Shown piece by piece: positions 5,408 through 48,470 of a stretch of 48,548 nucleotides of DNA. Location: assembly GCA_043764595.1 (NCBI GenBank), contig JAYUKI010000687.1:1-48548 (forward strand). The letters are read 5' to 3'. The notes below the pieces were generated by a model. That model had not been told where the DNA came from. It saw only the letters and a program-made list of their open reading frames with translations, and did not search any database. A program made the translations under genes and the position numbers. Each line of letters begins with the position of its first letter. The first letter of the stretch is position 1. The DNA is from Myxococcales bacterium. GTDB lineage: Bacteria; Myxococcota_A; Polyangia; Polyangiales; Polyangiaceae.

Positions 5408-5701
5408 ATGAACCTGGAAGAGGCCGCGGACGCCGTCTTGCGCCACCTTGGACAACGAGGTGTAGGCGAGCCCGGCGGAATCGCACTCATTCCTTCGTGC
5501 ACGATCGAGAAGCCCTATGGATGGGTCTTTTCGTACAACTCTCGGGAGTATGTCGAGACGGGGAACATCCTGAGCGCACTGTGCGGTCAGGGCCCGGTCC
5601 TCGTGCTGGCCACAGGCGAGATCGTGGAGTTTGGGTCGGCGTTGCCGGGCAACGAGCAGATTCGGCTTTTCGAGAAGGAACGCGGGCTTTCCACCCGCTA
5701 A
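5408..5701 (+). CDS. YrhB-like small protein (Imm35-type predicted immunity protein fold).
   Basis: 97 aa. KPYGWVFSYNSREYVETGN...LCGQGPVLVLATGEIVEFGS matches my memory of the YrhB/Imm35 pattern (GWvF.y.s..y..tg, G.gP..V....Ge). GAGGA lies 8 nt upstream of the ATG. Confidence 0.55.
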   Translation: MNLEEAADAVLRHLGQRGVGEPGGIALIPSCTIEKPYGWVFSYNSREYVETGNILSALCGQGPVLVLATGEIVEFGSALPGNEQIRLFEKERGLSTR

Positions 5702-5872: not shown

Positions 5873-7018
5873 ATGACTGCGCTCCCGGTTCCCCCTGGCG
5901 AGACGGCCGAGCCCAAGCTCGGGCCGAGCCTCGGAGCGCGCGTAGGCGAGTTTTTGCTCACGGGAGGGATCACTCCGATTCTTTTTCTCGTCTCGTGGCT
6001 CATGCGGAAGTCCCTCGGGCTCGATGCGGCCGAATACGCCGTGGGCTTCACGATGTTCCACGCGGCGCACGTGATCAACGATCCGCACTTCACCGTCACG
6101 TATTGCCTTTTCTACGAGGACGCCAAAGACCGTGCTTTCGGAGATGCCTTTCCCAAAGGGCAGAGACTTCGCTACGTGCTGGTTGCGTTCGTCGTGCCCC
6201 TCGTGCTCGTGGGCTGGGCGGTCGCCGCCTTGGCGATGAAATCGGCCGTCGTGCTCGGCGCGCTCGTTCAGGTCATGTTCCTTTTGGTGGGTTGGCACTA
6301 CGTCAAACAAGGATTTGGCGTGATGACCGTGCTTTCGGCGCGAAGAGGCGTCTTCTATTCGCCGCGCGAGCGGTTCGCCCTCTTGGCGCATTGTTTTGCG
6401 GGATGGGCGTATGCGTGGGCAAGTCCAGCCGATCCGGGCACGGAGGTCGAAGAGAAGGGGGTCGTGTTCAAGACGTGGGCAAGATCCCTCGCGCTCGAGC
6501 GCTTCACATTCGCCGTGTTCCTAGCCACGATTCCGCCGCTCGCCTTTTTGCTTTTTCTGAAGTGGAGACGGGAAGGGCGACTTCCCATCGCGACTCCCCT
6601 CATGGCCCTCTTGTGCAGCGTCTGGGCGTGGTCCATCTATTCGGGAATCGACCCTCTCGTGCGGTACGTGAACCCCGCGCTCCATTCGCTTCAATACCTT
6701 TTCATGGTGAGGCTCTTGAAAGGAAACGAAGCGAAAGAAATGGAAGGGCCTCCGCACTTCGAGATGTCGAAAAAGGCACGTCTCGGGGTTTTGGCCGCCA
6801 CGGCGCTCGGTCTCGGGCTCGTGGTGTTCCATGGGGCACCACAAGCCCTCGATGCCATCCTCGTCGCGAAGAAGGACCGCTTCACGGACCTCGGGCCTAC
6901 GCCCTATTTTGCTGCCATCTACGTGGTCGTGAACCTCCACCACTACTTCATGGACACGGTCCTGTGGCGCAAAGAGAACCCCAAAACGCGGTATCTGCGC
7001 GATGCGCGCGATGCCTGA
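5873..7018 (+). CDS. Polytopic membrane protein (about 9 TM) with several conserved-looking His motifs. Function unknown.
   Basis: Hydrophobic segments run throughout. Motifs: FHAAHVINDPHF, GWHYVKQGFG, ALHSLQYL, NLHHYFMDTVLW. The ORF-track start at 5783 is TTG. The first ATG is 5873 (MTALPVPP). Confidence 0.6.
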   Translation: MTALPVPPGETAEPKLGPSLGARVGEFLLTGGITPILFLVSWLMRKSLGLDAAEYAVGFTMFHAAHVINDPHFTVTYCLFYEDAKDRAFGDAFPKGQRLRYVLVAFVVPLVLVGWAVAALAMKSAVVLGALVQVMFLLVGWHYVKQGFGVMTVLSARRGVFYSPRERFALLAHCFAGWAYAWASPADPGTEVEEKGVVFKTWARSLALERFTFAVFLATIPPLAFLLFLKWRREGRLPIATPLMALLCSVWAWSIYSGIDPLVRYVNPALHSLQYLFMVRLLKGNEAKEMEGPPHFEMSKKARLGVLAATALGLGLVVFHGAPQALDAILVAKKDRFTDLGPTPYFAAIYVVVNLHHYFMDTVLWRKENPKTRYLRDARDA

Positions 7019-7067
7019 GCGACGCCCGCTTGCGTGCCAAGGAGAGGGGGGGCATCCTTCGAGGCCG

Positions 7068-7784
7068 ATGAAGCGGTCCAGGACGTTCATGCCATTCGCC
7101 AGCTCACGTGCATGTTCCTTTGGGGCCACGGTGGCCACAGTGCTCTTTTCTTCGGCCTGCTCGCGGGAGCACGTTCCCGTTCCCGTTCCCGTTCCCGTTC
7201 CCGTTCCCGTTCCCGTTCCCGCTCCCGCTCCCCAGGCCGCGCCTGCATCGTCGAGCTGGCCTATGTTGCCCGCCTCGGGCGCACTCCCCGCGTACCTCGT
7301 GCGGCTCGAGGCCTCGGGGGATCTCTATGCCCGTGTGGGCGCTTCAATCGTGCCCGCGCCCGAAGTCGACCACGCCGTTCTTCGGGGCTATCCGCGTTGG
7401 GTCGACAAGGGCGTCGTGGATCTCCCCTCCGGCGAGCGCTTGACGATTCTCACGTCGAAGAGAGTCTATTCGGCCGGGGAGGACGTTCGAATCGTTCACG
7501 TCCACGAAGCCACCAAACCGGGAGTGGAGCTCTACGTCATGGGACCGAAGGCCATCTACGGGGAGTACGTCGACGGAAAGCTCGCGAGCCCCGCCGCCGT
7601 AGCCCCGCCGGGGCCCTACGACGGCGCGGTCGTGCAGAGCCCTGGGGTGGACCACAACTACGAAGTCAGCGTGCACCGGCTTCCTGCCGGCAGGCACACG
7701 ATCGAATGGCGCTTTGCGACGTCCCCCTGGGGCCCGCGGCCGACGGCGCTCCGCTCGAACGTGCTCACAATCGAGGTTCGCTGA
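7068..7784 (+). CDS. Lipoprotein of unknown function with a (VP)8(AP)2 linker.
   Basis: MKRSRTFMPF...TVLFSSAC|S carries a signal peptide and lipobox, followed by the repeat linker and then a beta-rich domain. ATG 7068 is preferred over 7002 because it gives a proper signal peptide. Confidence 0.65.
   Translation: MKRSRTFMPFASSRACSFGATVATVLFSSACSREHVPVPVPVPVPVPVPVPAPAPQAAPASSSWPMLPASGALPAYLVRLEASGDLYARVGASIVPAPEVDHAVLRGYPRWVDKGVVDLPSGERLTILTSKRVYSAGEDVRIVHVHEATKPGVELYVMGPKAIYGEYVDGKLASPAAVAPPGPYDGAVVQSPGVDHNYEVSVHRLPAGRHTIEWRFATSPWGPRPTALRSNVLTIEVR
7173..7232 (+). repeat. Perfect hexanucleotide microsatellite (GTTCCC)x8 followed by (GCTCCC)x2, inside the lipoprotein CDS.
   Basis: Read directly from the sequence. 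7173-7220 is eight perfect GTTCCC units and 7221-7232 is two GCTCCC units. In frame they encode VPVPVPVPVPVPVPVPAPAP. Confidence 0.97.
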
Positions 7785-38667: not shown

Positions 38668-39639
38668 TTACGCGTCGCGAGGTCGGCCCAAGAGAAATCG
38701 TCGCCCGACGGCCATGCGGTCCAGCATCGTCTGCATCGTGGCCTCGACCTCGGCGTAGCAGCGATCGAGCACGGCCGGATCGTCCGCGGCCTCTGGCCCG
38801 AGCTCGGGCCACGAGATGGGAGGTCCGAACTCCTGCGTGACTTGGGTGGGCAGCGGGAGATAGGGCAGAAAGCCGGAGGTGAGCCCCCAAGGGAACGAGA
38901 GCACGATGGGGAACACGTCCGCGCGTGCCCAGGCGTGCATGTGGAAGACCTTGGCAAGCCAATCCCCCCGCGTGAGCACGATGAGCTGTTCGTGGGTGCC
39001 GAGCGTGACCACTGGAACGATGGGCACTCGAGCGCGAAGGGCGAGCTTCAGGAAGCCCTTTCGCCCGGCAAGTACGACCTTGTGCCGATCGCGAAACGGT
39101 CGAAAAACGTCCTGGTCGGAGCCCGGATAAACGAGGACGCAGTGCCCGGCCTCGAGGGCTTTGCGTGCGCTGTCGGGGCTCGCCCGAAGCATGCCGAGGC
39201 GGCCGGCGTACGCGTTGAGGACTGGGTCCTCGAAGATGAAGTCGTGGACGAGCGCGAACATGGCGCGGCCCGCGCCGTACCGATTTCGGATGGCGAGTGC
39301 CGTGAAAAAGCCTTCGGTAGGGACGAGAGCGCCGGAGTGGTTGCCCACGAGAAGCACGGGGCCCGTGCGCGGTACGTGGTCGACTCCCTCGGTGCGGAGG
39401 CGGAAGTAGCTTTTCGCGAGGATGCCAAGTCCGTCCGTGACGAGGTCGACGAGCCCAGGATCCCGCGCGCTCACGTCGTCGGACACGAGCTCGTGATCGC
39501 GGTGCGTGACGCGCCTTGCAGCAAAGCCGATGAACCGAAGGGCGAGGCGCACCGGGTTCAAGAGGACCTTGCGATGCTCCTTCGGGACCGCGGCGCGTGC
39601 GCGTCTCAACCAAGCGATCGATTCGGCGAGCGGAATCAT
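38668..39639 (-). CDS. Divergent PlsC-superfamily (lysophospholipid acyltransferase-like) protein.
   Basis: GPVLLVGNHSGALVPTEG (motif I variant without the Asp), VLVYPGSDQD (motif III variant), VPIVPVVTLG (motif IV). The ATG overlaps the upstream stop as ATGA (39636-39639). Confidence 0.55.
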   Translation of the reverse strand: MIPLAESIAWLRRARAAVPKEHRKVLLNPVRLALRFIGFAARRVTHRDHELVSDDVSARDPGLVDLVTDGLGILAKSYFRLRTEGVDHVPRTGPVLLVGNHSGALVPTEGFFTALAIRNRYGAGRAMFALVHDFIFEDPVLNAYAGRLGMLRASPDSARKALEAGHCVLVYPGSDQDVFRPFRDRHKVVLAGRKGFLKLALRARVPIVPVVTLGTHEQLIVLTRGDWLAKVFHMHAWARADVFPIVLSFPWGLTSGFLPYLPLPTQVTQEFGPPISWPELGPEAADDPAVLDRCYAEVEATMQTMLDRMAVGRRFLLGRPRDA

Positions 39640-40316
39640 GGTTCGGTCCTCTCGATGGCGTCGGAATCCAGTCCGAAACGCTGGGTGAACACCGTGGCGA
39701 AGCTGAAGGCCGCTACTTGCCAGAACCACACGCTGGTAAGGGCGAATCCCACTCCGCCCAGCAAGAGTCCGAAAAAGGAGAGCAACATGGCGGGAACCAC
39801 GATGCCCCAGGCCTTCCAATAGGCAAGCCCGCCTTGGCGGACGCGCCCAAGTGCGCGGAATGGATCGAAGATTTCGCGAGGATCGAGGCGTTTGCAGTAG
39901 TGCGACATGTATCCAGGAATCGCAACGATGGCGACGCCCAGAAGGAACGCTCCGACGGCGACGAGTGGCACGCTTCCGAGCCGCAAACCCATCCCGACGA
40001 GGCCCACTCCGGGCCAGCCGTAAAACGCCATTCCGAGGAAGGTCATCGTGCCGTGTTTCAGGAGGTCAAGAGGATCGCCCCAGGCCGGCCATGGAGTCTC
40101 TCCGCGGTGCATACGATGCACCACTCGGATGCGGTGTCCCATGTTCATGAGCCACCCAATCCCAGGAACCATGAGCCACAAGGCTCCCAAGAGAATGTCG
40201 CGCCGAGACGCCGCAGACTGTAGGGGAAAGCGAAACGAATTCGACAAATTCAGGCGACTTCGGAGGTCGATGTGCGAGCCCCGTTTCGATGTGGCGAAAA
40301 ATTCGGAATACGCCAT
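39636..40316 (-). CDS. DUF4013-like membrane protein.
   Basis: FRFPLQSA...ILLGALWLMVPGIGWLMNMGHRIRVV...GETPWPAWGD...LKHG plus 4-5 TM helices. This resembles my recollection of the DUF4013 pattern. Confidence 0.5.
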   Translation of the reverse strand: MAYSEFFATSKRGSHIDLRSRLNLSNSFRFPLQSAASRRDILLGALWLMVPGIGWLMNMGHRIRVVHRMHRGETPWPAWGDPLDLLKHGTMTFLGMAFYGWPGVGLVGMGLRLGSVPLVAVGAFLLGVAIVAIPGYMSHYCKRLDPREIFDPFRALGRVRQGGLAYWKAWGIVVPAMLLSFFGLLLGGVGFALTSVWFWQVAAFSFATVFTQRFGLDSDAIERTEP

Positions 40317-40537
40317 GATCCAAAGCTACTCGACGAGAACGATGAGCGGCGGGATTCGAGTCGTCGGCCAGCCGCCTGTTGAAAAACGGACCGAGTACGT
40401 GCGTCGTCCGCGCCGCAAGCACGAGGCGCGCCTCTGTTGCGCAGCCTAGTTTTCGAGGTGAGCAGGCACCGGAGGATCGCAACGAAGCGCTTGTGGATGC
40501 GGCGGCGCTCGGACGACGGGAGTTTTTCAACGGGCGG

Positions 40538-40666
40538 CTAGAGCGCCGAACCGCTTGATGACCGAGGATTTTCGCCGAGTTGCGAGCCGTGCGAGGCGCG
40601 ACCTACTGCTGCTAGGCGACGTAAATCGGCGAAAAGCCGACCGAATCAAGCGGTTCGGCGCTCTAG
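40538..40666. mobile_element. MITE-like palindromic repeat element, copy A (129 bp), with 22-bp perfect terminal inverted repeats.
   Basis: 40538-40559 CTAGAGCGCCGAACCGCTTGAT is the exact reverse complement of 40645-40666. The element is near-identical to the reverse complement of 46911-47070. Confidence 0.8.
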
Positions 40667-41481
40667 GGGCAAGCCTTCGCCGAGAAGTCCGTGATGGCAA
40701 ACCCTTGAGGATTCTCCATCGTACACGCGGCCCCGAAAGCAAGGGAGGTGATGGTCCGGTGAATGGACGTTCGTGAGCCCGAAACACCATCGAGCGTCAG
40801 CACGCCCTGCACGAACGAAAATTGCACTTCGAGAGAGAAGGGCGCGGGAGTGAGGGCCTTCCAGGAGGTCGTGGGGCGCGTGTCGCCGAAGTCACCGCCA
40901 GCGATGTAGTCCTTCTGGTTTGCGCTCATTGAGGCCTTCATCGACTCGAAAAAGACCCCGACGCCCGGACCCGTCGGTATCCCGAGGAGGGCGCGCGTGC
41001 CTGGGCCAGGAGCACTCGGGTAGAGGGCCATGGCGGCCCCATCGCCGTGGCCGCTCACCGAGATTTGTCCGACCACAAGTTTGTAGGAGCCCGTCACGCG
41101 CGTCGAAGCGGGAAATGTGAAGACCGCAGTCCCCGATTGGTTGAAGGTCAGCTCGCTCGCCGGCAGAAGCGTGAGCCGAGACGTCGTGAGCGATGCGAGG
41201 CCCGAGACCGACGGAGTCCTTCCATTTCCCGGCTCGAAGGAAAGGGGCGTGCAGGGAGTCGCCGCGTCGCCCGGCGGCGCAGAGTCGGGCGTTGCGTCGA
41301 GCACGAGAGCTGCGTCGTTCGGGACGGCGGAATCCACGGCTGTGGGACCGGACGCGTAGGTCTCTGGGACCGTGCCTCCGTCGCTCGCGAGGTCTGGGGC
41401 GAACGCGCCGCTGCACGCGGCCGAGAACAACGCGGGGAGGCCGAGAACCAAACTCCCGAGGCATAACGAGCGACGAAGCAT
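40663..41481 (-). CDS. Lipoprotein, hypothetical (beta-rich, possibly lectin/jelly-roll-like).
   Basis: MLRRSLCLGSLVLGLPALFSAAC|SG carries the lipobox. The TAG stop (40665-40663) lies inside the terminal CTAG of repeat copy A. Confidence 0.6.
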   Translation of the reverse strand: MLRRSLCLGSLVLGLPALFSAACSGAFAPDLASDGGTVPETYASGPTAVDSAVPNDAALVLDATPDSAPPGDAATPCTPLSFEPGNGRTPSVSGLASLTTSRLTLLPASELTFNQSGTAVFTFPASTRVTGSYKLVVGQISVSGHGDGAAMALYPSAPGPGTRALLGIPTGPGVGVFFESMKASMSANQKDYIAGGDFGDTRPTTSWKALTPAPFSLEVQFSFVQGVLTLDGVSGSRTSIHRTITSLAFGAACTMENPQGFAITDFSAKACP

Positions 41482-41590
41482 CGGGTGTCATTCTACTCCG
41501 CGCTCGACGGCAAAACTGTCGAGCTTCGCGCCTTTCGTGCCGACGGCTGTTCGGAGTGTGCGAATGTGCGTCTCGGAGGCCCGAGCCCAG

Positions 41591-42049
41591 ATGGAAGTCC
41601 CCGAAGTTACTCCGTTTACCGCGGCCCAAATTCGCGATGCGACCAAGGCTGGACGAACGTACGTGTACCGAATCGAGCTCCCCGGAAGCCCGATCGTCCT
41701 CCGCACCATGTGCTTCGGAAAGGTCGACGCCGACGGGGCGGAGCTTACGATCTCGATGAAACGCGAGACCGGTGAGCCGGTGGGCGATCCCGAAACGAAG
41801 CGCGTCACGTGGGAAGACCTACGCAAACACGCCGAGTTCCCGAAGACCTCGGTGACGATTTCGGAGAGCGAGCTCGAGGTGCTCTCCGGCACACGGACGT
41901 GCACGGTCTACACGGTGTGCGAAGGCAAGTCGGTCACCTGCTTCTTCTTCGCGAAGGACCTTCCAGGTGCGCCGGTGCTGTTTCACACCGAGGAGGACGG
42001 AGCCCGCGTGGTTACGAGCTTGCTCGTGTCGCACGACAAAGGAACATGA
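41591..42049 (+). CDS. Small cytoplasmic protein, hypothetical (152 aa).
   Basis: Coding-like composition from ATG 41591 (MEVPEVTPFTAAQIRDATKAGRTYVYRIEL...). Upstream of that the ORF is Arg/Ser-rich and implausible. Confidence 0.5.
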   Translation: MEVPEVTPFTAAQIRDATKAGRTYVYRIELPGSPIVLRTMCFGKVDADGAELTISMKRETGEPVGDPETKRVTWEDLRKHAEFPKTSVTISESELEVLSGTRTCTVYTVCEGKSVTCFFFAKDLPGAPVLFHTEEDGARVVTSLLVSHDKGT

Positions 42050-42379
42050 CGCGGCTCACGAGTACGAAAGACTCGGGGTCCGTAGCCTCGGTAACCACGT
42101 CCGCAGGTTCGAGCCTCGGACCGTAGTGGTCCGGATGGAAATCGGCGGTCGACTGCGCCGGACCAACGGCACCTTTCGATCTCGCGGAACCAAGATATTT
42201 GGCTTTCGTAGTAGGCGACCTCAGGAAGGATTCAACACGCCGCTCCAAAAGCGCCGGATGATTCGCGGTCGTGCTTCTCGAGCCGGGAGGTCCGCGCGAG
42301 CCGTTGCGTGAAGTGGCAAGTAGAGAAACGCCATTCCCTCGTTGCACTCGGAGCTCTCTAAGGACCACGGGCCTATGCG

Positions 42380-43729
42380 TCAGTGCTCGACGCGGCTTTC
42401 GCCCTGGCTTGGCTGTTCGGTGTCCTCGCGCTCTTCTTCGAGGTCGAAGAGCGTTCGTGCCGCCCGCACGAGGTCGCCTGCGTCGGTGGACTTCAGGCGA
42501 GACGTTGGCCCATGGAGGAGCTTGTTTACGGCGGCATCCATCATCTGGGTGAGCGCGGCGCGTTCGTCCGGTCCGAGGTGTCTCAGCTTGCCCGAGAGGC
42601 TTCGCTCGAGCTCGGCGTGAAGCACCGCGCGGGTCTTCGCGCGCATACCGACGATCGTCGGCTGGACATCCAGGCCACGAACCCAGGATTTCCACTCTTC
42701 GAGCTCGGCCGAGACGATGGCTTCGGCGGCGTGGGCCTCGTTTTTTCGGGCGCGGAGGCCCTCGGCGACGGTCTGTTCGAGATCGTCGACGTTGTAGACG
42801 AAGCAGTTGTCGACGTCCTCGTGGGCGGCAGGATCCACGTTGCGCGGGACCGAGATGTCGACGATGAAGAGCGTGCGCCCGCGCCTCCGTTTCATTACGC
42901 GTTTCACGAGGTCTTTGCCGATGACGTACGACCGGCTCGCGGTGCTGACCACCACGATGTCCGAGAGCACCATCTCTTCTTCGAGCTGATCGAGTGGTGC
43001 GGCCGTTCCCCCGAAGGTCTGCGCGAGGAGCGCGGCGCGCTCGAAGCTGCGGTTGCAGACGCGGATCGAGCGAGCCCCCTTGCCGAGGCTCTTTGCGGCC
43101 GCTTCGGCCATTTCTCCGGCGCCGACGAGCAGGACGGTGTGGCCCGAGAGGTCCCCGAAGATGTTCCGTGCGAGGTCCACGGCGACGCTGCTGATGCTCA
43201 CGGTGCCTGCGCCCAAGGCGGTTTCGGTGCGAACCCGTTTGGCCACGGAGAACGCTCGGGTCACGCAGCGACCCAGGAGATTTCCGAGGGCGCCGGACGC
43301 GCTCGCAAGGTCGTAGGCTTCCTTGACCTGGCCGAGAATTTGCGGCTCGCCGAGCACCATGCTGTCGAGGCTCGCGGTCACTCGGAAGATGTGGCGAACC
43401 GCCTCTTCGCCTTCGCGTTCGTAGAGGTACGCGCCGAGCTCCTCGTGGCTCGAGACGGCGGCGTGCTCGCGCAAGACCTCGCGAACGGCGCGCAAGGCCT
43501 CTTCGTGGTGTGGCCCGGACGAACGTGCGAAGACCTCGACGCGATTGCACGTCGATAGAAACAGCGTCTCGGCGATTTCGGTCCTGGCCGAGAGCCGCGC
43601 CAAAAGTGCCGGGAGCGCCCCCTCCGAGACGGCGAATCGCTCGCGCACCTCGACGGGGGCCGTCTTGTGCGAGAGTCCGACGACCACGATCCCTTCGCCG
43701 GGGACAGGAGGCTTTTTGGGGGCCGTCAC
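42380..43729 (-). CDS. hemA: Glutamyl-tRNA reductase.
   Basis: GLSHKTAPVEVRE, LSTCNRVE (catalytic Cys), SLDSMVLGEPQILGQVK, LLVGAGEMAE (NADPH site), and a C-terminal dimerisation helix. The GTG start overlaps the upstream stop as GTGA (43726-43729). Confidence 0.93.
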   Translation of the reverse strand: MTAPKKPPVPGEGIVVVGLSHKTAPVEVRERFAVSEGALPALLARLSARTEIAETLFLSTCNRVEVFARSSGPHHEEALRAVREVLREHAAVSSHEELGAYLYEREGEEAVRHIFRVTASLDSMVLGEPQILGQVKEAYDLASASGALGNLLGRCVTRAFSVAKRVRTETALGAGTVSISSVAVDLARNIFGDLSGHTVLLVGAGEMAEAAAKSLGKGARSIRVCNRSFERAALLAQTFGGTAAPLDQLEEEMVLSDIVVVSTASRSYVIGKDLVKRVMKRRRGRTLFIVDISVPRNVDPAAHEDVDNCFVYNVDDLEQTVAEGLRARKNEAHAAEAIVSAELEEWKSWVRGLDVQPTIVGMRAKTRAVLHAELERSLSGKLRHLGPDERAALTQMMDAAVNKLLHGPTSRLKSTDAGDLVRAARTLFDLEEEREDTEQPSQGESRVEH

Positions 43730-44622
43730 GAAGCGCCCTTCTTCACGGGCGACGACCACGAACGCGATGCCGAGCCGACCTCCGCGTGGGGGCGGGGGTC
43801 TTTCGGGGATGGCTCCCTGAATGTGTAGAGTGCAAGTACAAGGACGGCGAACCCGAAGCCGGCGATGGTTCCGTAGGCCGCGCGCCTGCCGCGCCAACCC
43901 GCCGATGCGCGCAGGAAAAGCACCCCGGCAGCAAAGAGCCAGGTGGCGTAGCCGAAGCCGGTGCGCACCAAGTCGGCGATGGTCACGGCGTCCACGCGCC
44001 TCACGAAGAGCGTGCCGGTGACGATGCCGAGCGTCAGCAAAGGAAAGCCCGCCAGGAGAAAGCGGTGCTCGGCGCGGTCGAGGGCGTCGAGCGGAGGGAG
44101 CCTCTTGAAGAGCCCGCCGGTTTTTTTCTGTTTCAAGAGGCGTTCTTGGACGAGAAAAAGCGAGGCCGCGGCAAAAGCGAGGCTGAAGAGGGCGATGCCG
44201 AGCACGTTCATCGTGACATGCACCGGAAGCATCGCAGACCGAAAGCGCGGCGTGGGATCGAGCGGCCCAGAGCCCGTAAAACGTAGGGCCAAGTGCGCCG
44301 TGAGCGCGAGCGGGGCCACGAAGGCTCCGAGCACGTCGAGCTTCCACTTCTTGCGAAAGAGGGCATAGCCGCCGGCCATCAGCATGGTGGCGACGCTCAT
44401 CGGAAAGTGCACGCCAGCGACCGGGCACACGTGCCAAACGAACGAAGCGGCGATGATGTGGCTCGCGTGGAACATCGCGCCGACGCCCACGAGTCGGGCT
44501 GCGAAGACGCCTTGTTTTTCGTCCGGCGTTTTTGCCAAGAGGTGCCGAACGAAGAGCACCGTGGCCACGAGGTAGTCGAGGGCCGCCGCCACGAAGAGCA
44601 CGTCCGCAATGCGCGTGCTCAC
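43726..44622 (-). CDS. Cytochrome c assembly (CcsA/HemX-like) family membrane protein.
   Basis: 8-TM protein. Its position directly upstream of, and overlapping, hemA matches the CcsA-like proteins commonly linked to hemA. GTG start. Confidence 0.7.
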   Translation of the reverse strand: MSTRIADVLFVAAALDYLVATVLFVRHLLAKTPDEKQGVFAARLVGVGAMFHASHIIAASFVWHVCPVAGVHFPMSVATMLMAGGYALFRKKWKLDVLGAFVAPLALTAHLALRFTGSGPLDPTPRFRSAMLPVHVTMNVLGIALFSLAFAAASLFLVQERLLKQKKTGGLFKRLPPLDALDRAEHRFLLAGFPLLTLGIVTGTLFVRRVDAVTIADLVRTGFGYATWLFAAGVLFLRASAGWRGRRAAYGTIAGFGFAVLVLALYTFREPSPKDPRPHAEVGSASRSWSSPVKKGAS

Positions 44623-44626
44623 GAGC

Positions 44627-45013
44627 CTAGCTCCCTGCCGCGAGACGCGAAACGAGGGCCTCGTCGCTGCCGGCCGAGGGCGCGCTGCCGAGGAGCTTCT
44701 GGTGCTCCGCGTAGGAATGCAGCGGAAAGCCTGTAAATCCTGGGACGACGTCGTACGCGTTGTCTCCGATGAGCATCGAGCCCTCGAGGAGCTCGGCGCC
44801 GAGCTCTTGGAGGAAGGCGACCGACTTCACCTTTCCGACGAGCTCGTTCACGTCTTCCGCGCCCGTGACCTCGGCGACCACGCGCACGGCCTCCGCGACG
44901 CGGTAGGTGCGTTTTTCCGAGATGACCGTGAGCTCTCCCGCGGCGAGCTCGATGCGGCCGTCGACGATCCACTCGTCCAAGGATTGCTGGGGGAAAAAGA
45001 TTCGGTTTTGCAT
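44627..45013 (-). CDS. Hypothetical protein (128 aa), first gene of the hemA cluster.
   Basis: Strong GC3 bias from ATG 45013 (MQNRIFFPQQSLDEWIVDGRIELAAGELTV...), but not upstream of it. The stop lies 4 nt before the next start. Confidence 0.5.
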   Translation of the reverse strand: MQNRIFFPQQSLDEWIVDGRIELAAGELTVISEKRTYRVAEAVRVVAEVTGAEDVNELVGKVKSVAFLQELGAELLEGSMLIGDNAYDVVPGFTGFPLHSYAEHQKLLGSAPSAGSDEALVSRLAAGS

Positions 45014-45284
45014 GATGCGGCGGATCTCCACCCGCGAAGGGCTTCGGAGCTCTGCGTTCGGTTCGCTGAAGAGTAACAAAATACCGGTCGTGTCGCGAGA
45101 TTCCCCGCGGCCTGGGCCGAGATGCTCGACCGCGGCGAAACCGCCTGGCTCGTCGGCCCGCGTCCTCTCCCAGGAAAACTCGCCGACCTCGCTTTCGGGA
45201 GATTTTTCGTGCCAGGTTGGTGTGAGTTTTTCGAAGAAAACCTCCCATTTTCGACCAACATCGGCGAGCCTTCGGTCCGCTTTC

Positions 45285-45917
45285 GTGTCGACTTCCCCGT
45301 TCGCCGTGTACGACGCCCTCGTGTCGCTTGCTGGCCACCCCTCGAACGAGCCGTGGCTGTCGTCGCTTCGCGAGGCCTTTTTTGCCCGCACGGGAGCGTT
45401 TTCGTCGGACGACCCTTGGTTCGAGCGGCGAACGCGTGCGTTCTGGGACGATGCCGTGACACGTGCGCCCGGTGGGCTGGGCGAGCGCTTCGCGCCGGAG
45501 CTCGGCCCGGAAGAAGCGAGGGTGGCGCGGAGCTTCGGTCGCGCGCACCGTGGGCTTTTTGTCCTCGAGCCGGAGGAGAGCCGCGTTCGTTTCGTGGACC
45601 TCGTGTCGGACGCCGTGTTTTGGGTCGAGGCCTTCGATTCGTCCACCAAGGCAGGCATTTTTCACCACGAAGGCGGCCTCTGCGATGCTCGGCTCGTCGC
45701 AAGCGCCGAAGGCGTCGTCGCCATGCTGCCGGGCGCTTTTTTTCATCCGCACGACGCCACGCCATCGGTGCGCAACGTTTTGGAAGAGGCCCGAGCGCGC
45801 GGCATGAGCACCCACGCCACGCTCGATACGCTTCTCGTGATGGAGCATCGCCTGTGCACGCTCTCGCGGGTGAAACCGAGCTTCGCCTATCGGCTCGGCC
45901 CCGAGAAGCCGCGCTGA
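45285..45917 (+). CDS. Hypothetical protein (about 210 aa).
   Basis: GC3 bias switches on at GTG 45285 (VSTSPFAVYDALVSLAGHPSNEPWL...). The overlapping minus-strand ORFs here are Arg/Ser-rich shadows. Confidence 0.5.
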   Translation: MSTSPFAVYDALVSLAGHPSNEPWLSSLREAFFARTGAFSSDDPWFERRTRAFWDDAVTRAPGGLGERFAPELGPEEARVARSFGRAHRGLFVLEPEESRVRFVDLVSDAVFWVEAFDSSTKAGIFHHEGGLCDARLVASAEGVVAMLPGAFFHPHDATPSVRNVLEEARARGMSTHATLDTLLVMEHRLCTLSRVKPSFAYRLGPEKPR

Positions 45918-46025
45918 AGCTCCAAGGGTGCCGGTTCACGCCGGCCGAGCACACTGTCGGGCTTTCGACCGATGGGCTCGACCTCGTAAAGGCTCCTTTG
46001 CCTGCCCGTGGCAGCGGTTTTTGCT

Positions 46026-46763
46026 ATGAGGCATCCCATGGCGCAGCCCATCGAGACCTTCACCGCGACCGTCGTTTCCCATCGCCCGCTCGCCCCCGGA
46101 GTTCGCGAGGTCACGTTCGAACGGGATGACGGCGCGCCGGTGGTCTTCGTCGCGGGGCAGTGGATGAACCTCGAGCTCGCCGAGAAGGTCGGCGAGCTAC
46201 GCCGCGCGTACAGCATTGCGTCTCCGCCGGATGGCACGGGTCGTTTCGAGCTCGCGGTCACGCGGGTCGAAGGCGGGCCGGGCTCGACCAAGCTGCACGC
46301 CATGGACGTGGGCGCCAAGGTGAGCGTCACGGGACCTCAAGGCATTTTCTACCGCAAAGAACGCGGACCGTCGCTCTTCGTGGCTACGGGAACGGGGTTC
46401 ACGCCGCTCCGAAGCATGCTGAAAGATGCTCTCGCGAAGGGGGACGATTCGCCGATGCGCCTCATCTTCGGAGTGCGCACTCCGGAAGATCGCATCTATG
46501 TCGACGAGCTTCGTGCGCTCGAAGAAAAGCACCCGAACTTTCGTGCATTCTTCACGCTTTCGCGCCCGCCGGCCGAAGGTTGGGACGGCCGCACGGGATA
46601 CGTCCAGACCCACGTTCGAGGGCTCTACGAGGAGCTCGCGAAGTCCGGGCGGACGAACGTCTACATCTGCGGGCTCCAAAAAATGGTGAGCGCCGTTCGA
46701 GACCTTCTTCGCAAAGAAATGGAGCTCGAGCGGCAGCAGGTCCACTCCGAGCGCTACGACTGA
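46026..46763 (+). CDS. Ferredoxin-NADP reductase-like FAD/NAD(P)-binding oxidoreductase.
   Basis: RRAYSIAS (RxYS FAD motif), GPGSTKL, FVATGTGFTPLRSM (NAD(P) motif), YICGLQKM. Start at 46008 (GTG), 46026 or 46038. Confidence 0.85.
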   Translation: MRHPMAQPIETFTATVVSHRPLAPGVREVTFERDDGAPVVFVAGQWMNLELAEKVGELRRAYSIASPPDGTGRFELAVTRVEGGPGSTKLHAMDVGAKVSVTGPQGIFYRKERGPSLFVATGTGFTPLRSMLKDALAKGDDSPMRLIFGVRTPEDRIYVDELRALEEKHPNFRAFFTLSRPPAEGWDGRTGYVQTHVRGLYEELAKSGRTNVYICGLQKMVSAVRDLLRKEMELERQQVHSERYD

Positions 46764-46910
46764 CCGGCGCTCGCATCCGAGCCGAGCGCTCGACGACAAG
46801 GGCCGTTTTACCCTGTTCGGGTGCTCTCGAGCCCAGGCCAGTCGCGTGGTCGAAGGCCTATCCCGCGAGCATTCTGCTCGACCTGCAGCCGTCGCCGGCT
46901 CGCCCCAGCT

Positions 46911-47070
46911 CTAGAGCGCCGAACCGCTTGATTCGGTCGGCTTTTCGCCGGTTTACGTCGCCGTCCTTCGTTGCTCCTCCTCGCCTAGCAGCAGTAGGAC
47001 GCGTCGTCGCGCCTCGCACGGCTCGCAACTCGGCGAAAATCCTCGGTCATCAAGCGGTTCGGCGCTCTAG
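46911..47070. mobile_element. MITE-like palindromic repeat element, copy B (160 bp), inverted relative to copy A.
   Basis: It has the same 22-bp TIRs (46911-46932 and 47049-47070). Its reverse complement matches copy A over the first 65 nt. It then carries about 8-nt and about 23-nt insertions and one substitution. Confidence 0.8.
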
Positions 47071-48470
47071 TAGCCCTTCCGCATGAAGACCTTGTCCCCG
47101 ACCTCGATCTCGCGTCGAGAGCTCGTGAAGATGCACATGCTGCTTTGTTTGCCGACCGTGACCACACGGAGCTCGCCAACGACTTCTTCGGGGAGCTTCT
47201 TCTCGTCGGTGGGCTTGGGGACGGCCTCGATGGCGGCGGGGGAGTCGTTCTCGAGGGCGATACGGGGCACGGCTTTTCGGTTCGTGAAGCTGTCGTGCCA
47301 GGCGTCGCCCTTCCGGAGAACGAAGAGCCGATTGCCCGGCTTGATCTTGGCGTCCTCGCCGTGGTCGATGAACACGACCTGCTCTTGGCCGTAGAAGCTA
47401 TGGGTGCGCACGCTGGCGACCACTTGGGCCGCGGCCTCCTCTTCGTTGCGGAGGGGCGGAACCACCTCGAACCGGCGCGTGATGGGACCGATTCGGGCTC
47501 CGCGCTCGATCACGTCGGTGGCTTCGACGATTCGGGCGCGCGCCGTGTGGTCTTTGGCGCGCCAATTGTCGACGCGTACGGTGCCTTGAATGCCGATGAT
47601 GTTCCCGCCGCGCACCGACTTTTGAGGGCGATATACGGTGAGGAGCTGTCCCTCTTTGACTTCACGGTTGTCGGCGAAACGGATGTAGACCTCGTCTCCT
47701 TCGGAGAGAAGCATCTTGTCCTCCGGCGAGCCGTTGATCTCACCCCAGTTCGAGGATTGGTCTTCGACGTACCCTTCGTTTCGAAGGAATATGGTCCCAG
47801 CCGGTACGGTTCGGGTGCGGTCGAGAAGTCCGGCAGACGGCCGGCCTCCACGTGGCTCCTCGGCGCCGAGACGGAGTCTCACCTGGTCGCCCGGGTAGAT
47901 CCAGTGGGGATTCTGGATTTCGGGATTGTACGACCAGATTCGAGGCCACTGATAGGGGTTTTGGAAGTACTCGTCGCAGATGTGCCAGAGCGTATCGCCA
48001 CGACGCACCGTGTGAATCTGGGCATTCGAGTTGCGGCTCATTCGTGTTCCGCCGAGCACGAACGAGCCATCCTCGCGGCCTCGGACCACGCCTCCGCCGG
48101 TGCTCTTCCCGAGGTCGAACCCGTCACGATCGTTGGGACCCGTGATGGGCTTCGAAGATGAGCCGGTAACGTTTCCGCCGCCCAGGTTTCCGCCTTCGGG
48201 AACGGGGGCTACGACGGAGTTCGGATAACCGGGCACGACGAACGTGGTGGACGTTCCTCCGCCCGTGGGAGCCGCGCCTCCTGCGCCTCCTGCGGCCGGG
48301 GCCGCGCCTCCACCGGCTGGGCCTGCCGCCGGAGCTGCGCCGCCGGCCGGACCTGCGCCGCCCGCTTGAGCGAGCGCTTGGTCGTCGAGGGTGACGAGCC
48401 CGAGGCCGACAAGGAGGGCAAAGAGGCGGGATTTCGCCGAGAAACCGGTGATACGGAAGGAGCGGGTCAT
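47067..48470 (-). CDS. LysM-domain protein with an N-terminal signal/TM segment and an Ala/Gly/Pro low-complexity region.
   Basis: LysM: IHTVRRGDTLWHICDEYFQNPYQWPRIWSYNPEIQNPHWIYPGDQVRL. N-terminus: SRLFALLVGLGLVTL. The TAG stop (47069-47067) lies inside the terminal CTAG of repeat copy B. Confidence 0.8.
   Translation of the reverse strand: MTRSFRITGFSAKSRLFALLVGLGLVTLDDQALAQAGGAGPAGGAAPAAGPAGGGAAPAAGGAGGAAPTGGGTSTTFVVPGYPNSVVAPVPEGGNLGGGNVTGSSSKPITGPNDRDGFDLGKSTGGGVVRGREDGSFVLGGTRMSRNSNAQIHTVRRGDTLWHICDEYFQNPYQWPRIWSYNPEIQNPHWIYPGDQVRLRLGAEEPRGGRPSAGLLDRTRTVPAGTIFLRNEGYVEDQSSNWGEINGSPEDKMLLSEGDEVYIRFADNREVKEGQLLTVYRPQKSVRGGNIIGIQGTVRVDNWRAKDHTARARIVEATDVIERGARIGPITRRFEVVPPLRNEEEAAAQVVASVRTHSFYGQEQVVFIDHGEDAKIKPGNRLFVLRKGDAWHDSFTNRKAVPRIALENDSPAAIEAVPKPTDEKKLPEEVVGELRVVTVGKQSSMCIFTSSRREIEVGDKVFMRKGY

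Follow-up and report, generated by a model that had tools for sequence, protein, structure and literature searches.

Correia elements (CREE/NEMIS) of Neisseria are non-coding repeats of 100–160 bp with ~26-bp terminal inverted repeats (TIRs) and a TA duplication. They are present in many intergenic copies and are often co-transcribed with their neighbours as hairpins. They are not known to have an autonomous partner. The ERIC/IRU and REP/REPIN repeats of proteobacteria are imperfect palindromes of ~100–130 nt that occupy intergenic or 3'-flanking positions and sometimes form mosaic clusters. Among insertion sequences (IS), the IS5 family (IS5, IS427 and IS1031 groups) uses YTAR-type targets including CTAG, makes 2–4-bp duplications, and often has ends that begin with GAG or GG. 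IS630-family elements move by cut and paste and duplicate TA (PMC2170065). IS630 itself is reported to transpose preferentially to TA within 5'-CTAG-3' (Tenzen and Ohtsubo 1991, via PMC2170065).

The window, which is the whole 48,548-nt stretch of DNA analysed, contains two copies of a palindromic repeat that is referred to here as element-1. Like IS630/Tc1-mariner elements, element-1 has a CTAG target (Tenzen and Ohtsubo 1991, via PMC2170065), short TIRs that a transposase would bind and a presumed cut-and-paste mode, and CTAGCTAG doublets by its copies could be excision footprints. However, no IS630-type transposase or IS with matching TIRs was found in the sequences searched, and TA and 4-bp duplications look the same at its junctions; membership in this group is a lead. 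The TIR resembles an IS5 end in starting with GAG if TA is duplicated, whereas with a 4-bp duplication it starts with AGC, which is atypical of IS5, and the searches returned no matching IS. Element-1 is unrelated in sequence to Correia elements, comes from a different host phylum and targets the full CTAG, and no outward promoter or IHF-type motif was detected in it. It differs from ERIC/IRU and REP/REPIN repeats in its sharp TIR ends with a fixed tetranucleotide boundary, its nested insertion and its clean empty sites. Its sequence is also unrelated to theirs, it matches no Rfam family, and no RAYT gene was present in the ORFs scanned.

We conclude with good confidence that the palindrome is a MITE (miniature inverted-repeat transposable element, a non-autonomous class II element), with a 160-nt non-coding unit and TIRs of 19–20 bp (GAGCGCCGAACCGCTTGAT) that extend imperfectly to ~47 nt. 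The family is previously undescribed and of an ordinary, well-known kind. The first reading of this DNA, made from the letters alone, had not recognised it as a described family. In agreement, literature searches on the TIR string and on MITEs of myxobacteria and of relevant taxa returned no description of it.

Results

Structure of the two window copies

The sequence-only reading described a 129-bp unit with perfect 22-bp TIRs that recurs in the opposite orientation at 46911–47070. Both copies were recovered. The 22-nt sequence CTAGAGCGCCGAACCGCTTGAT has four exact occurrences in the window, which form two inverted pairs. Those of copy A (40538..40666, plus strand; 129 nt including both flanking CTAGs) lie at 40538..40559 (+) and 40645..40666 (−), and are exact reverse complements as claimed. 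Those of copy B (46911..47070, minus strand) lie at 46911..46932 (+), on the side of a FAD/NAD oxidoreductase gene, and at 47049..47070 (−), adjoining a LysM-domain gene. No such matches are expected by chance: 100 shuffled versions of the window gave none, even at ≤3 mismatches. In the left TIR of copy A the initial CTA (or CTAG) consists of target-site bases, and the repeat proper is GAGCGCCGAACCGCTTGAT.

In each copy the 22-nt arms are perfectly complementary. They continue into imperfect arms of 47 nt with 81% complementarity, which include the inner stem that had been proposed: TTTTCGCCG (40569..40577, +), 9 nt inside the TIR of copy A, pairs with CGGCGAAAA (40627..40635, +). Folding energies were compared with those of shuffled sequences. 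For copy A the energy is −84.8 kcal/mol (z = −7.0) on the plus strand and −75.7 kcal/mol (z = −6.1) on the minus strand, in line with the long imperfect hairpin suggested for it; for copy B it is −99.6 kcal/mol (z = −8.7). The three CTAG tetranucleotides noticed in copy A begin at 40538, 40612 and 40663. The central one (40612..40615) serves as an insertion target in other copies (contigs L014, L015, L030 and L025).

Apart from its reverse orientation, copy B differs from copy A by one substitution and by 8 + 23 additional central bases. Alignment with eight further copies identified the 160-nt form of copy B as the standard one and copy A as a deletion derivative missing 8 nt and 23 nt centrally. 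The 23-nt deletion, as read from the alignment, lies between two GCGA repeats. The repeat that had been reported is thus real, but the copy taken as the unit is the altered one; judged from these alignments, copy A lost 31 nt after its insertion. At 129 and 160 nt both units are within the size of a bacterial MITE (below ~500 bp). Neither has coding capacity, and six-frame translation gave short open stretches with no start-to-stop gene. A 21-codon ORF begins inside the TIR (MTEDFRRVASRARRDD...).

Dispersal of the family

The 19-mer core of the TIR was searched against 185,579 representative genomes, one per species. One true copy was found, in the Polyangiaceae MAG DAORJJ01, with 97.5% identity over 157 nt. 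It lies between a glycosyltransferase gene and a convergent gene. The other 11 of the 12 matches were rejected as chance, being lone matches that lack a second arm and any other part of the element.

The same 19-mer returned 32 contigs from the JGI metagenome collection, and 27/32 hold full or partial real copies. L017, L018, L027, L028 and L040 were set aside as chance matches, since each has a lone match and the second arm and element sequence are missing. L036 and L037 were also set aside, since they lack a CTAG, carry 3 mismatches in the second arm and have an unrelated interior. Nearly all carrier contigs come from the sample series Ga0073903/4/5 and Ga0209476 and have 67–74% GC, compared with 64.8% for the window. 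Many copies lie within ~100–200 nt of a contig end, which is expected because a repeat breaks short-read assembly.

Counting from unique flanks, there are at least 21 distinct insertion sites outside the window, and the copies there are 90–98% identical to copy B in pairwise comparison. The genes that end at copies are mutually unrelated and include a GNAT acetyltransferase, malic enzyme, a methyltransferase, Hsp33, DUF6209 and DUF2062. The copy in L001 has a weak, sub-threshold DUF1574 match on one side and a glycosyltransferase on the other. Solo TIRs occur in L034 and L019/L022. In L020 (1243–1472), a copy of element-1 without its far TIR directly adjoins a tRNA-Leu(taa) gene. The sequence-only reading had recommended a search for other copies and held that finding none anywhere would speak against mobility. 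The search instead located copies in DAORJJ01 and at no fewer than about 20 metagenome sites, at unrelated loci.

Nine full copies were compared. Their 22-nt arms hold 3 changes, where at least one arm of each copy is exact in the core by construction because the copies were retrieved with the 19-mer; all remaining substitutions and indels are interior. Compensatory changes are absent from all 56 predicted base pairs, and the substitutions disrupt pairs, as in a young DNA repeat and unlike a selected RNA structure.

Empty sites in relatives

Syntenic contigs of relatives were reached through homologues of the LysM and lipoprotein genes that flank the copies. Two of these contigs, L052 and L053, match the window at 92.6% nucleotide identity over 10–14 kb, and both copies A and B are missing from them. 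At site A, L052/L053 read GCCC-CTAG-AGCAGCGGGCTCGAATCCC, while the window reads GCCC-CTAG-(copy A)-CTAG-(174-nt element-3)-CTGG-CCGACGACTCGAATCCC. At site B, L052 reads GGC-TAC-TAG-CGCGCG with the remaining spacer alignable, and in the window this CTAG is followed by the 160-nt unit. Each empty site is a single CTAG, which holds the TAG stop codon of the upstream gene.

Copy B is also absent from L049 (96% LysM identity) and L050 (83%). These are scored as absences rather than clean empty sites, because the gene has a TGA stop and the spacer does not align. No copy of element-1, or of the companion families element-2 and element-3 described below, was present in any examined contig of the relatives. 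The strain of the window is itself represented in two ENA assemblies (ERZ27314334 and ERZ28573637), which are essentially identical to the window and contain both copies.

Empty orthologous sites, which had been proposed as a check, were thus found for both window copies, and the possibility that both loci are conserved in all relatives is contradicted. By this comparison, both copies are recent gains of the window lineage, inserted after the split from a relative at ~93% nucleotide identity. The named relatives of the flanking proteins belong to Polyangiaceae MAGs and Labilithrix. Copies are up to 98% identical across these hosts, and those of 97–98% identity occur in genomes of 65% and of 70–74% GC, yet the relative at 93% identity has none. 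Such a distribution would call for horizontal spread or for a very recent burst, and suggests a recent spread of the family, possibly horizontal.

Boundary and target site

The insertion target of element-1 is the palindromic tetranucleotide CTAG, and after insertion a CTAG stands at each end of the element. In 33 of the 37 distinct ends, GAGCGCC is directly preceded by CTA; these 33 carry the complete end of CTAG plus the 19-mer, the latter being the pattern used for the search. The base at position −4 of the distinct flanks is random (G14, A9, C7, T7). Full copies show no direct repeats beyond the CTAG, so the unit runs from CTAG to CTAG and a duplication, if there is one, is confined to that tetranucleotide.

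Nested insertion in L014 gives the same picture. A younger 160-nt copy, 96% identical to copy B, lies in the central CTAG of an older copy that is 90–94% identical to copy B. The junctions read CGC-CTAG-(copy)-CTAG-CAGCAG, and the central CTAG of the older copy is otherwise single. Target-site duplication is evident in that empty sites and the uninterrupted element have one CTAG, whereas the insert is flanked by CTAG on each side. Because the target and the element ends are both palindromic, duplication of TA (2 bp) and of CTAG (4 bp) predict identical junctions: C-TA-(G...C)-TA-G and CTAG-(A...T)-CTAG are the same sequence. The earlier question of TA versus CTAG is thus answered as to the target, which is CTAG, with junctions that fit duplication of either.

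The remark that CTAG is counter-selected in many bacterial genomes was borne out in the window, where 26 are found and 54 ± 7 are expected from shuffles, a depletion of about two-fold; in the element the tetranucleotide marks the insertion target. Copies A and B account for 6/26 and element-3 for 1. Each inserted copy brings three new CTAGs, which leads to nested copies and to clusters of different CTAG-bounded elements.

Companion elements

A second palindromic element, element-3, is unrelated in sequence to element-1 and occupies 40368..40541 (174 nt), sharing the CTAG at 40538–40541 with copy A. Its ends are CCAG/CTAG, the far tetranucleotide having decayed to CCAG. It folds at −100.6 kcal/mol (z = −6.6). 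A relative with 70% identity lies in L022 (1951–2132) and fragments lie in L042 and L035. Element-3 is missing from L052/L053 together with copy A.

A third CTAG-bounded inverted-repeat family, element-2, is ~320 nt long with ends CTAGTC(C/T)CCTGGAAGCGTGATCCC. It is present in seven contigs (L030 at 6641–7065, and L015, L022, L025, L032, L033 and L043). It sits in the central CTAG of element-1 in L015 and L030 and directly adjoins element-1 in L033 and L043. Elements abut at a common CTAG in the window, L033, L042, L043 and L035.

The doublet CTAGCTAG occurs four times in 241 kb of related sequence (L015 at 92, L033 at 7822, L038 at 6787 and L026 at 4041). Three of the four are at element junctions, against ~0.1 expected by a rough estimate from CTAG frequency. 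The doublets may be excision footprints or repeated hits on one target.

In L025 (~1490–1620) a fragment lies directly after the central CTAG of a truncated element-1. Translated, it gives GRAGYHPAMMVALLVYAHCVGK, which resembles the N-terminal region (DUF772 type) of IS5/IS1182 transposases. The fragment lacks a start codon, is truncated, and has ends that differ from those of element-1.

Stop codons and neighbouring genes

Each window copy coincides at one end with the stop codon of a gene. The TAG stop (40663..40665, −) of a 272-aa lipoprotein gene (40663–41481, −) lies inside the terminal CTAG of copy A, and the empty site in L052 supplies the same CCC-CTAG stop for its lipoprotein gene. 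The TAG stop (47067..47069, −) of a 467-aa LysM-domain gene (47067–48470, −) lies inside the terminal CTAG of copy B. In DAORJJ01 the TAG of the terminal CTAG is likewise the stop codon of the adjacent gene. Over all loci, about 14/31 outer ends terminate a long ORF with high GC3, and 5/9 full copies are at stop codons. The gene is faced by either arm (9 versus 4).

The 20 window CTAGs outside the copies were classified by us against the ORF map. Four are stop codons, ~7–8 are intergenic, 7 are intragenic and one is in element-3. About one third of the tolerable CTAG targets (4 of ~11–12) are already stop codons, so 5/9 needs no special homing. In these GC-rich genomes CTAG is rare, and non-coding CTAGs lie mostly within short intergenic regions or at xxC-TAG stops, so many copies fall exactly on a stop. 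Homing to stop codons as a special property was considered and is unproven, the enrichment being no greater than the share of stop codons among non-coding CTAGs.

Copy A had been placed between the lipoprotein stop and the region upstream of a DUF4013/acyltransferase operon, 222 nt from the ATG at 40316. The stop codon, however, lies in the terminal CTAG itself, and the interval is not plain upstream DNA, as 40368–40541 is element-3. The spacer between the lipoprotein gene and the DUF4013-like gene is ~350 nt in the window versus ~52 nt in the relative, measured to ATG 40316. For this DUF4013-like gene (39636–40316, −), public automatic calls start at 40172 (178 aa), while conservation with L052 reaches ATG 40316 (226 aa). 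Its match to Pfam DUF4013 is a weak one (E 0.0012). Most of a called 59-aa ORF (40270–40449, +) falls inside element-3, and this call is probably spurious.

Two further features of the window were observed away from the copies. A tandem hexamer, (CGTTCC/CGCTCC)n with ~13 units, lies at 7160–7237 inside an ORF without a Pfam match (7002–7784, +). A 97-aa ORF at 5408–5701 (+) matches Pfam Imm35 (E 7e-9) and adjoins two ORFs without a Pfam match. Imm35 is an immunity protein of polymorphic toxin systems.

Search for a mobilising enzyme

The sequence-only reading found no transposase, integrase or IS in the window. Consistent with it, neither a scan of 27 window ORFs nor the gene tables for 34.6–48.5 kb revealed any transposase, Y1 (RAYT-type) enzymes included. 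There was also no transposase or Y1 domain in the ORFs adjoining ten copies at other loci.

The suggested search for a full-length IS bounded by the same TIR was made with the exact 19-mer and was negative: no autonomous IS with this TIR was found among the matches in the 185,579 genomes and the JGI metagenomes. All matches there are accounted for by MITE copies, some of them truncated, or by chance occurrences in coding sequence. A distant blastn search of PLSDB with the 160-nt unit found no full-length IS in plasmids; its one weak match, 58 nt in Caballeronia, is unrelated. An IMG/VR scan with a TIR 17-mer gave ten matches, all single chance matches in coding-like sequence. Rfam gave no match at gathering score over the whole window, and at E ≤ 1 over 40300–47150 no match touches the elements. 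A promoter and terminator consensus scan found nothing in or at the elements.

Discussion

The many insertion sites, the empty sites, the nested insertion and the lack of a transposase in the ORFs scanned support the earlier view of a mobile, non-autonomous element. A transposase encoded elsewhere in the genome would bind the TIRs and would cut and paste the element. The mover is most likely a DDE transposase, either IS630/Tc1-mariner-like, with TA duplicated in CTAG, or IS5-like, with the 4-bp CTAG. Insertion at a stop codon rebuilds the TAG stop of the gene. The lipoprotein and LysM transcripts would form a long hairpin just after the stop codon, and any effect of this predicted hairpin on the transcripts would be a by-product.

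A broader reading treats elements 1–3 as a CTAG-using, self-seeding network with safe landing at gene 3' ends, a non-classical mover and horizontal spread between Polyangiaceae lineages of 65–74% GC. The mover could be a domesticated enzyme or one of RAYT/HUH type, or the elements could be cross-mobilised by an IS whose ends differ. Each insertion makes new CTAG targets and rebuilds TAG stops, so gene 3' ends would be a safe site. We regard this reading as unlikely.

It is also possible that the element is mobile and that the copies which persist are kept for a useful hairpin after the stop codon. The hairpin might stabilise the 3' end, offer a site to RNase III or terminate transcription without a U-tract, roles that have been put forward for Correia, ERIC and REP repeats. 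The frequency of outer ends at the TAG stop of a real, high-GC3 gene (about 14/31, both window copies included) and the great stability of the fold on either strand are in keeping with this. However, 5/9 copies at stops is not beyond target availability (4 of ~11–12 non-coding CTAGs), the gene can be faced by either arm, and compensatory changes (0/56 pairs) and promoter or terminator motifs are absent. Close relatives also do without the element. We consider selection for the hairpin an unlikely explanation.

A REPIN-like origin is likewise unlikely. In this case two inverted REP-type units would be moved as single-stranded DNA by a RAYT (HUH/Y1) enzyme, and the element would insert 3' of CTAG and itself end in CTAG, leaving no true target duplication; an empty CTAG versus a filled CTAG...CTAG fits this as well as it fits duplication. 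The whole element folds as a hairpin with a conserved tetranucleotide at each end, solo TIRs are present (L034, L019/L022), and different elements abut in mosaic clusters that recall BIMEs. There is also a small palindrome inside the TIR, AGCG-CCGAAC-CGCT, but its 4-bp stem is much shorter than the REP stems of E. coli and Pseudomonas. The sequence examined, comprising the 27 window ORFs, the 34.6–48.5 kb gene tables and the ORFs adjoining ten copies, contains no Y1 transposase. Sharp-ended, perfect terminal repeats of 19–22 bp are what DDE substrates typically show, and the CTAG boundary common to three unrelated families is explained more simply by the target choice of a DDE enzyme than by three RAYT/REP pairs.

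Finally, a fixed, non-mobile motif that occurs twice by chance, such as a conserved terminator, an operator palindrome or an integron attC-type site, would account for the strong fold and the position next to stop codons, which attC sites and terminators share, but it is scarcely credible for a sequence that is missing at orthologous sites in four relatives, lies at ≥20 unrelated loci behind unrelated genes, has one copy nested in another, lacks a U-tract, and has no Rfam match even at E ≤ 1. The attC possibility was rejected in particular, as GTTRRRY/RYYYAAC core sites are missing from the ends (CTAGAGCGCC...GGCGCTCTAG) and occupied and empty sites differ by the element alone, with no gene cassette.

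We therefore retain the DDE-mobilised MITE as the preferred reading. It would open a new mechanism only if the mobilising enzyme proves unusual, and otherwise opens none. The practical consequences concern annotation and assembly. These repeats break metagenome assemblies, they yield spurious small ORFs such as the 59-aa call in element-3, and their insertion can triple the length of an intergenic region. No report of MITEs in Polyangiaceae or Labilithrix-related myxobacteria was found in the searchable literature, and the present MITE family, previously undescribed, can now be annotated in these organisms together with at least two companions. The family illustrates cleanly, in a natural setting, that insertions can be driven onto stop codons by the combined action of target specificity, the scarcity of CTAG and purifying selection.
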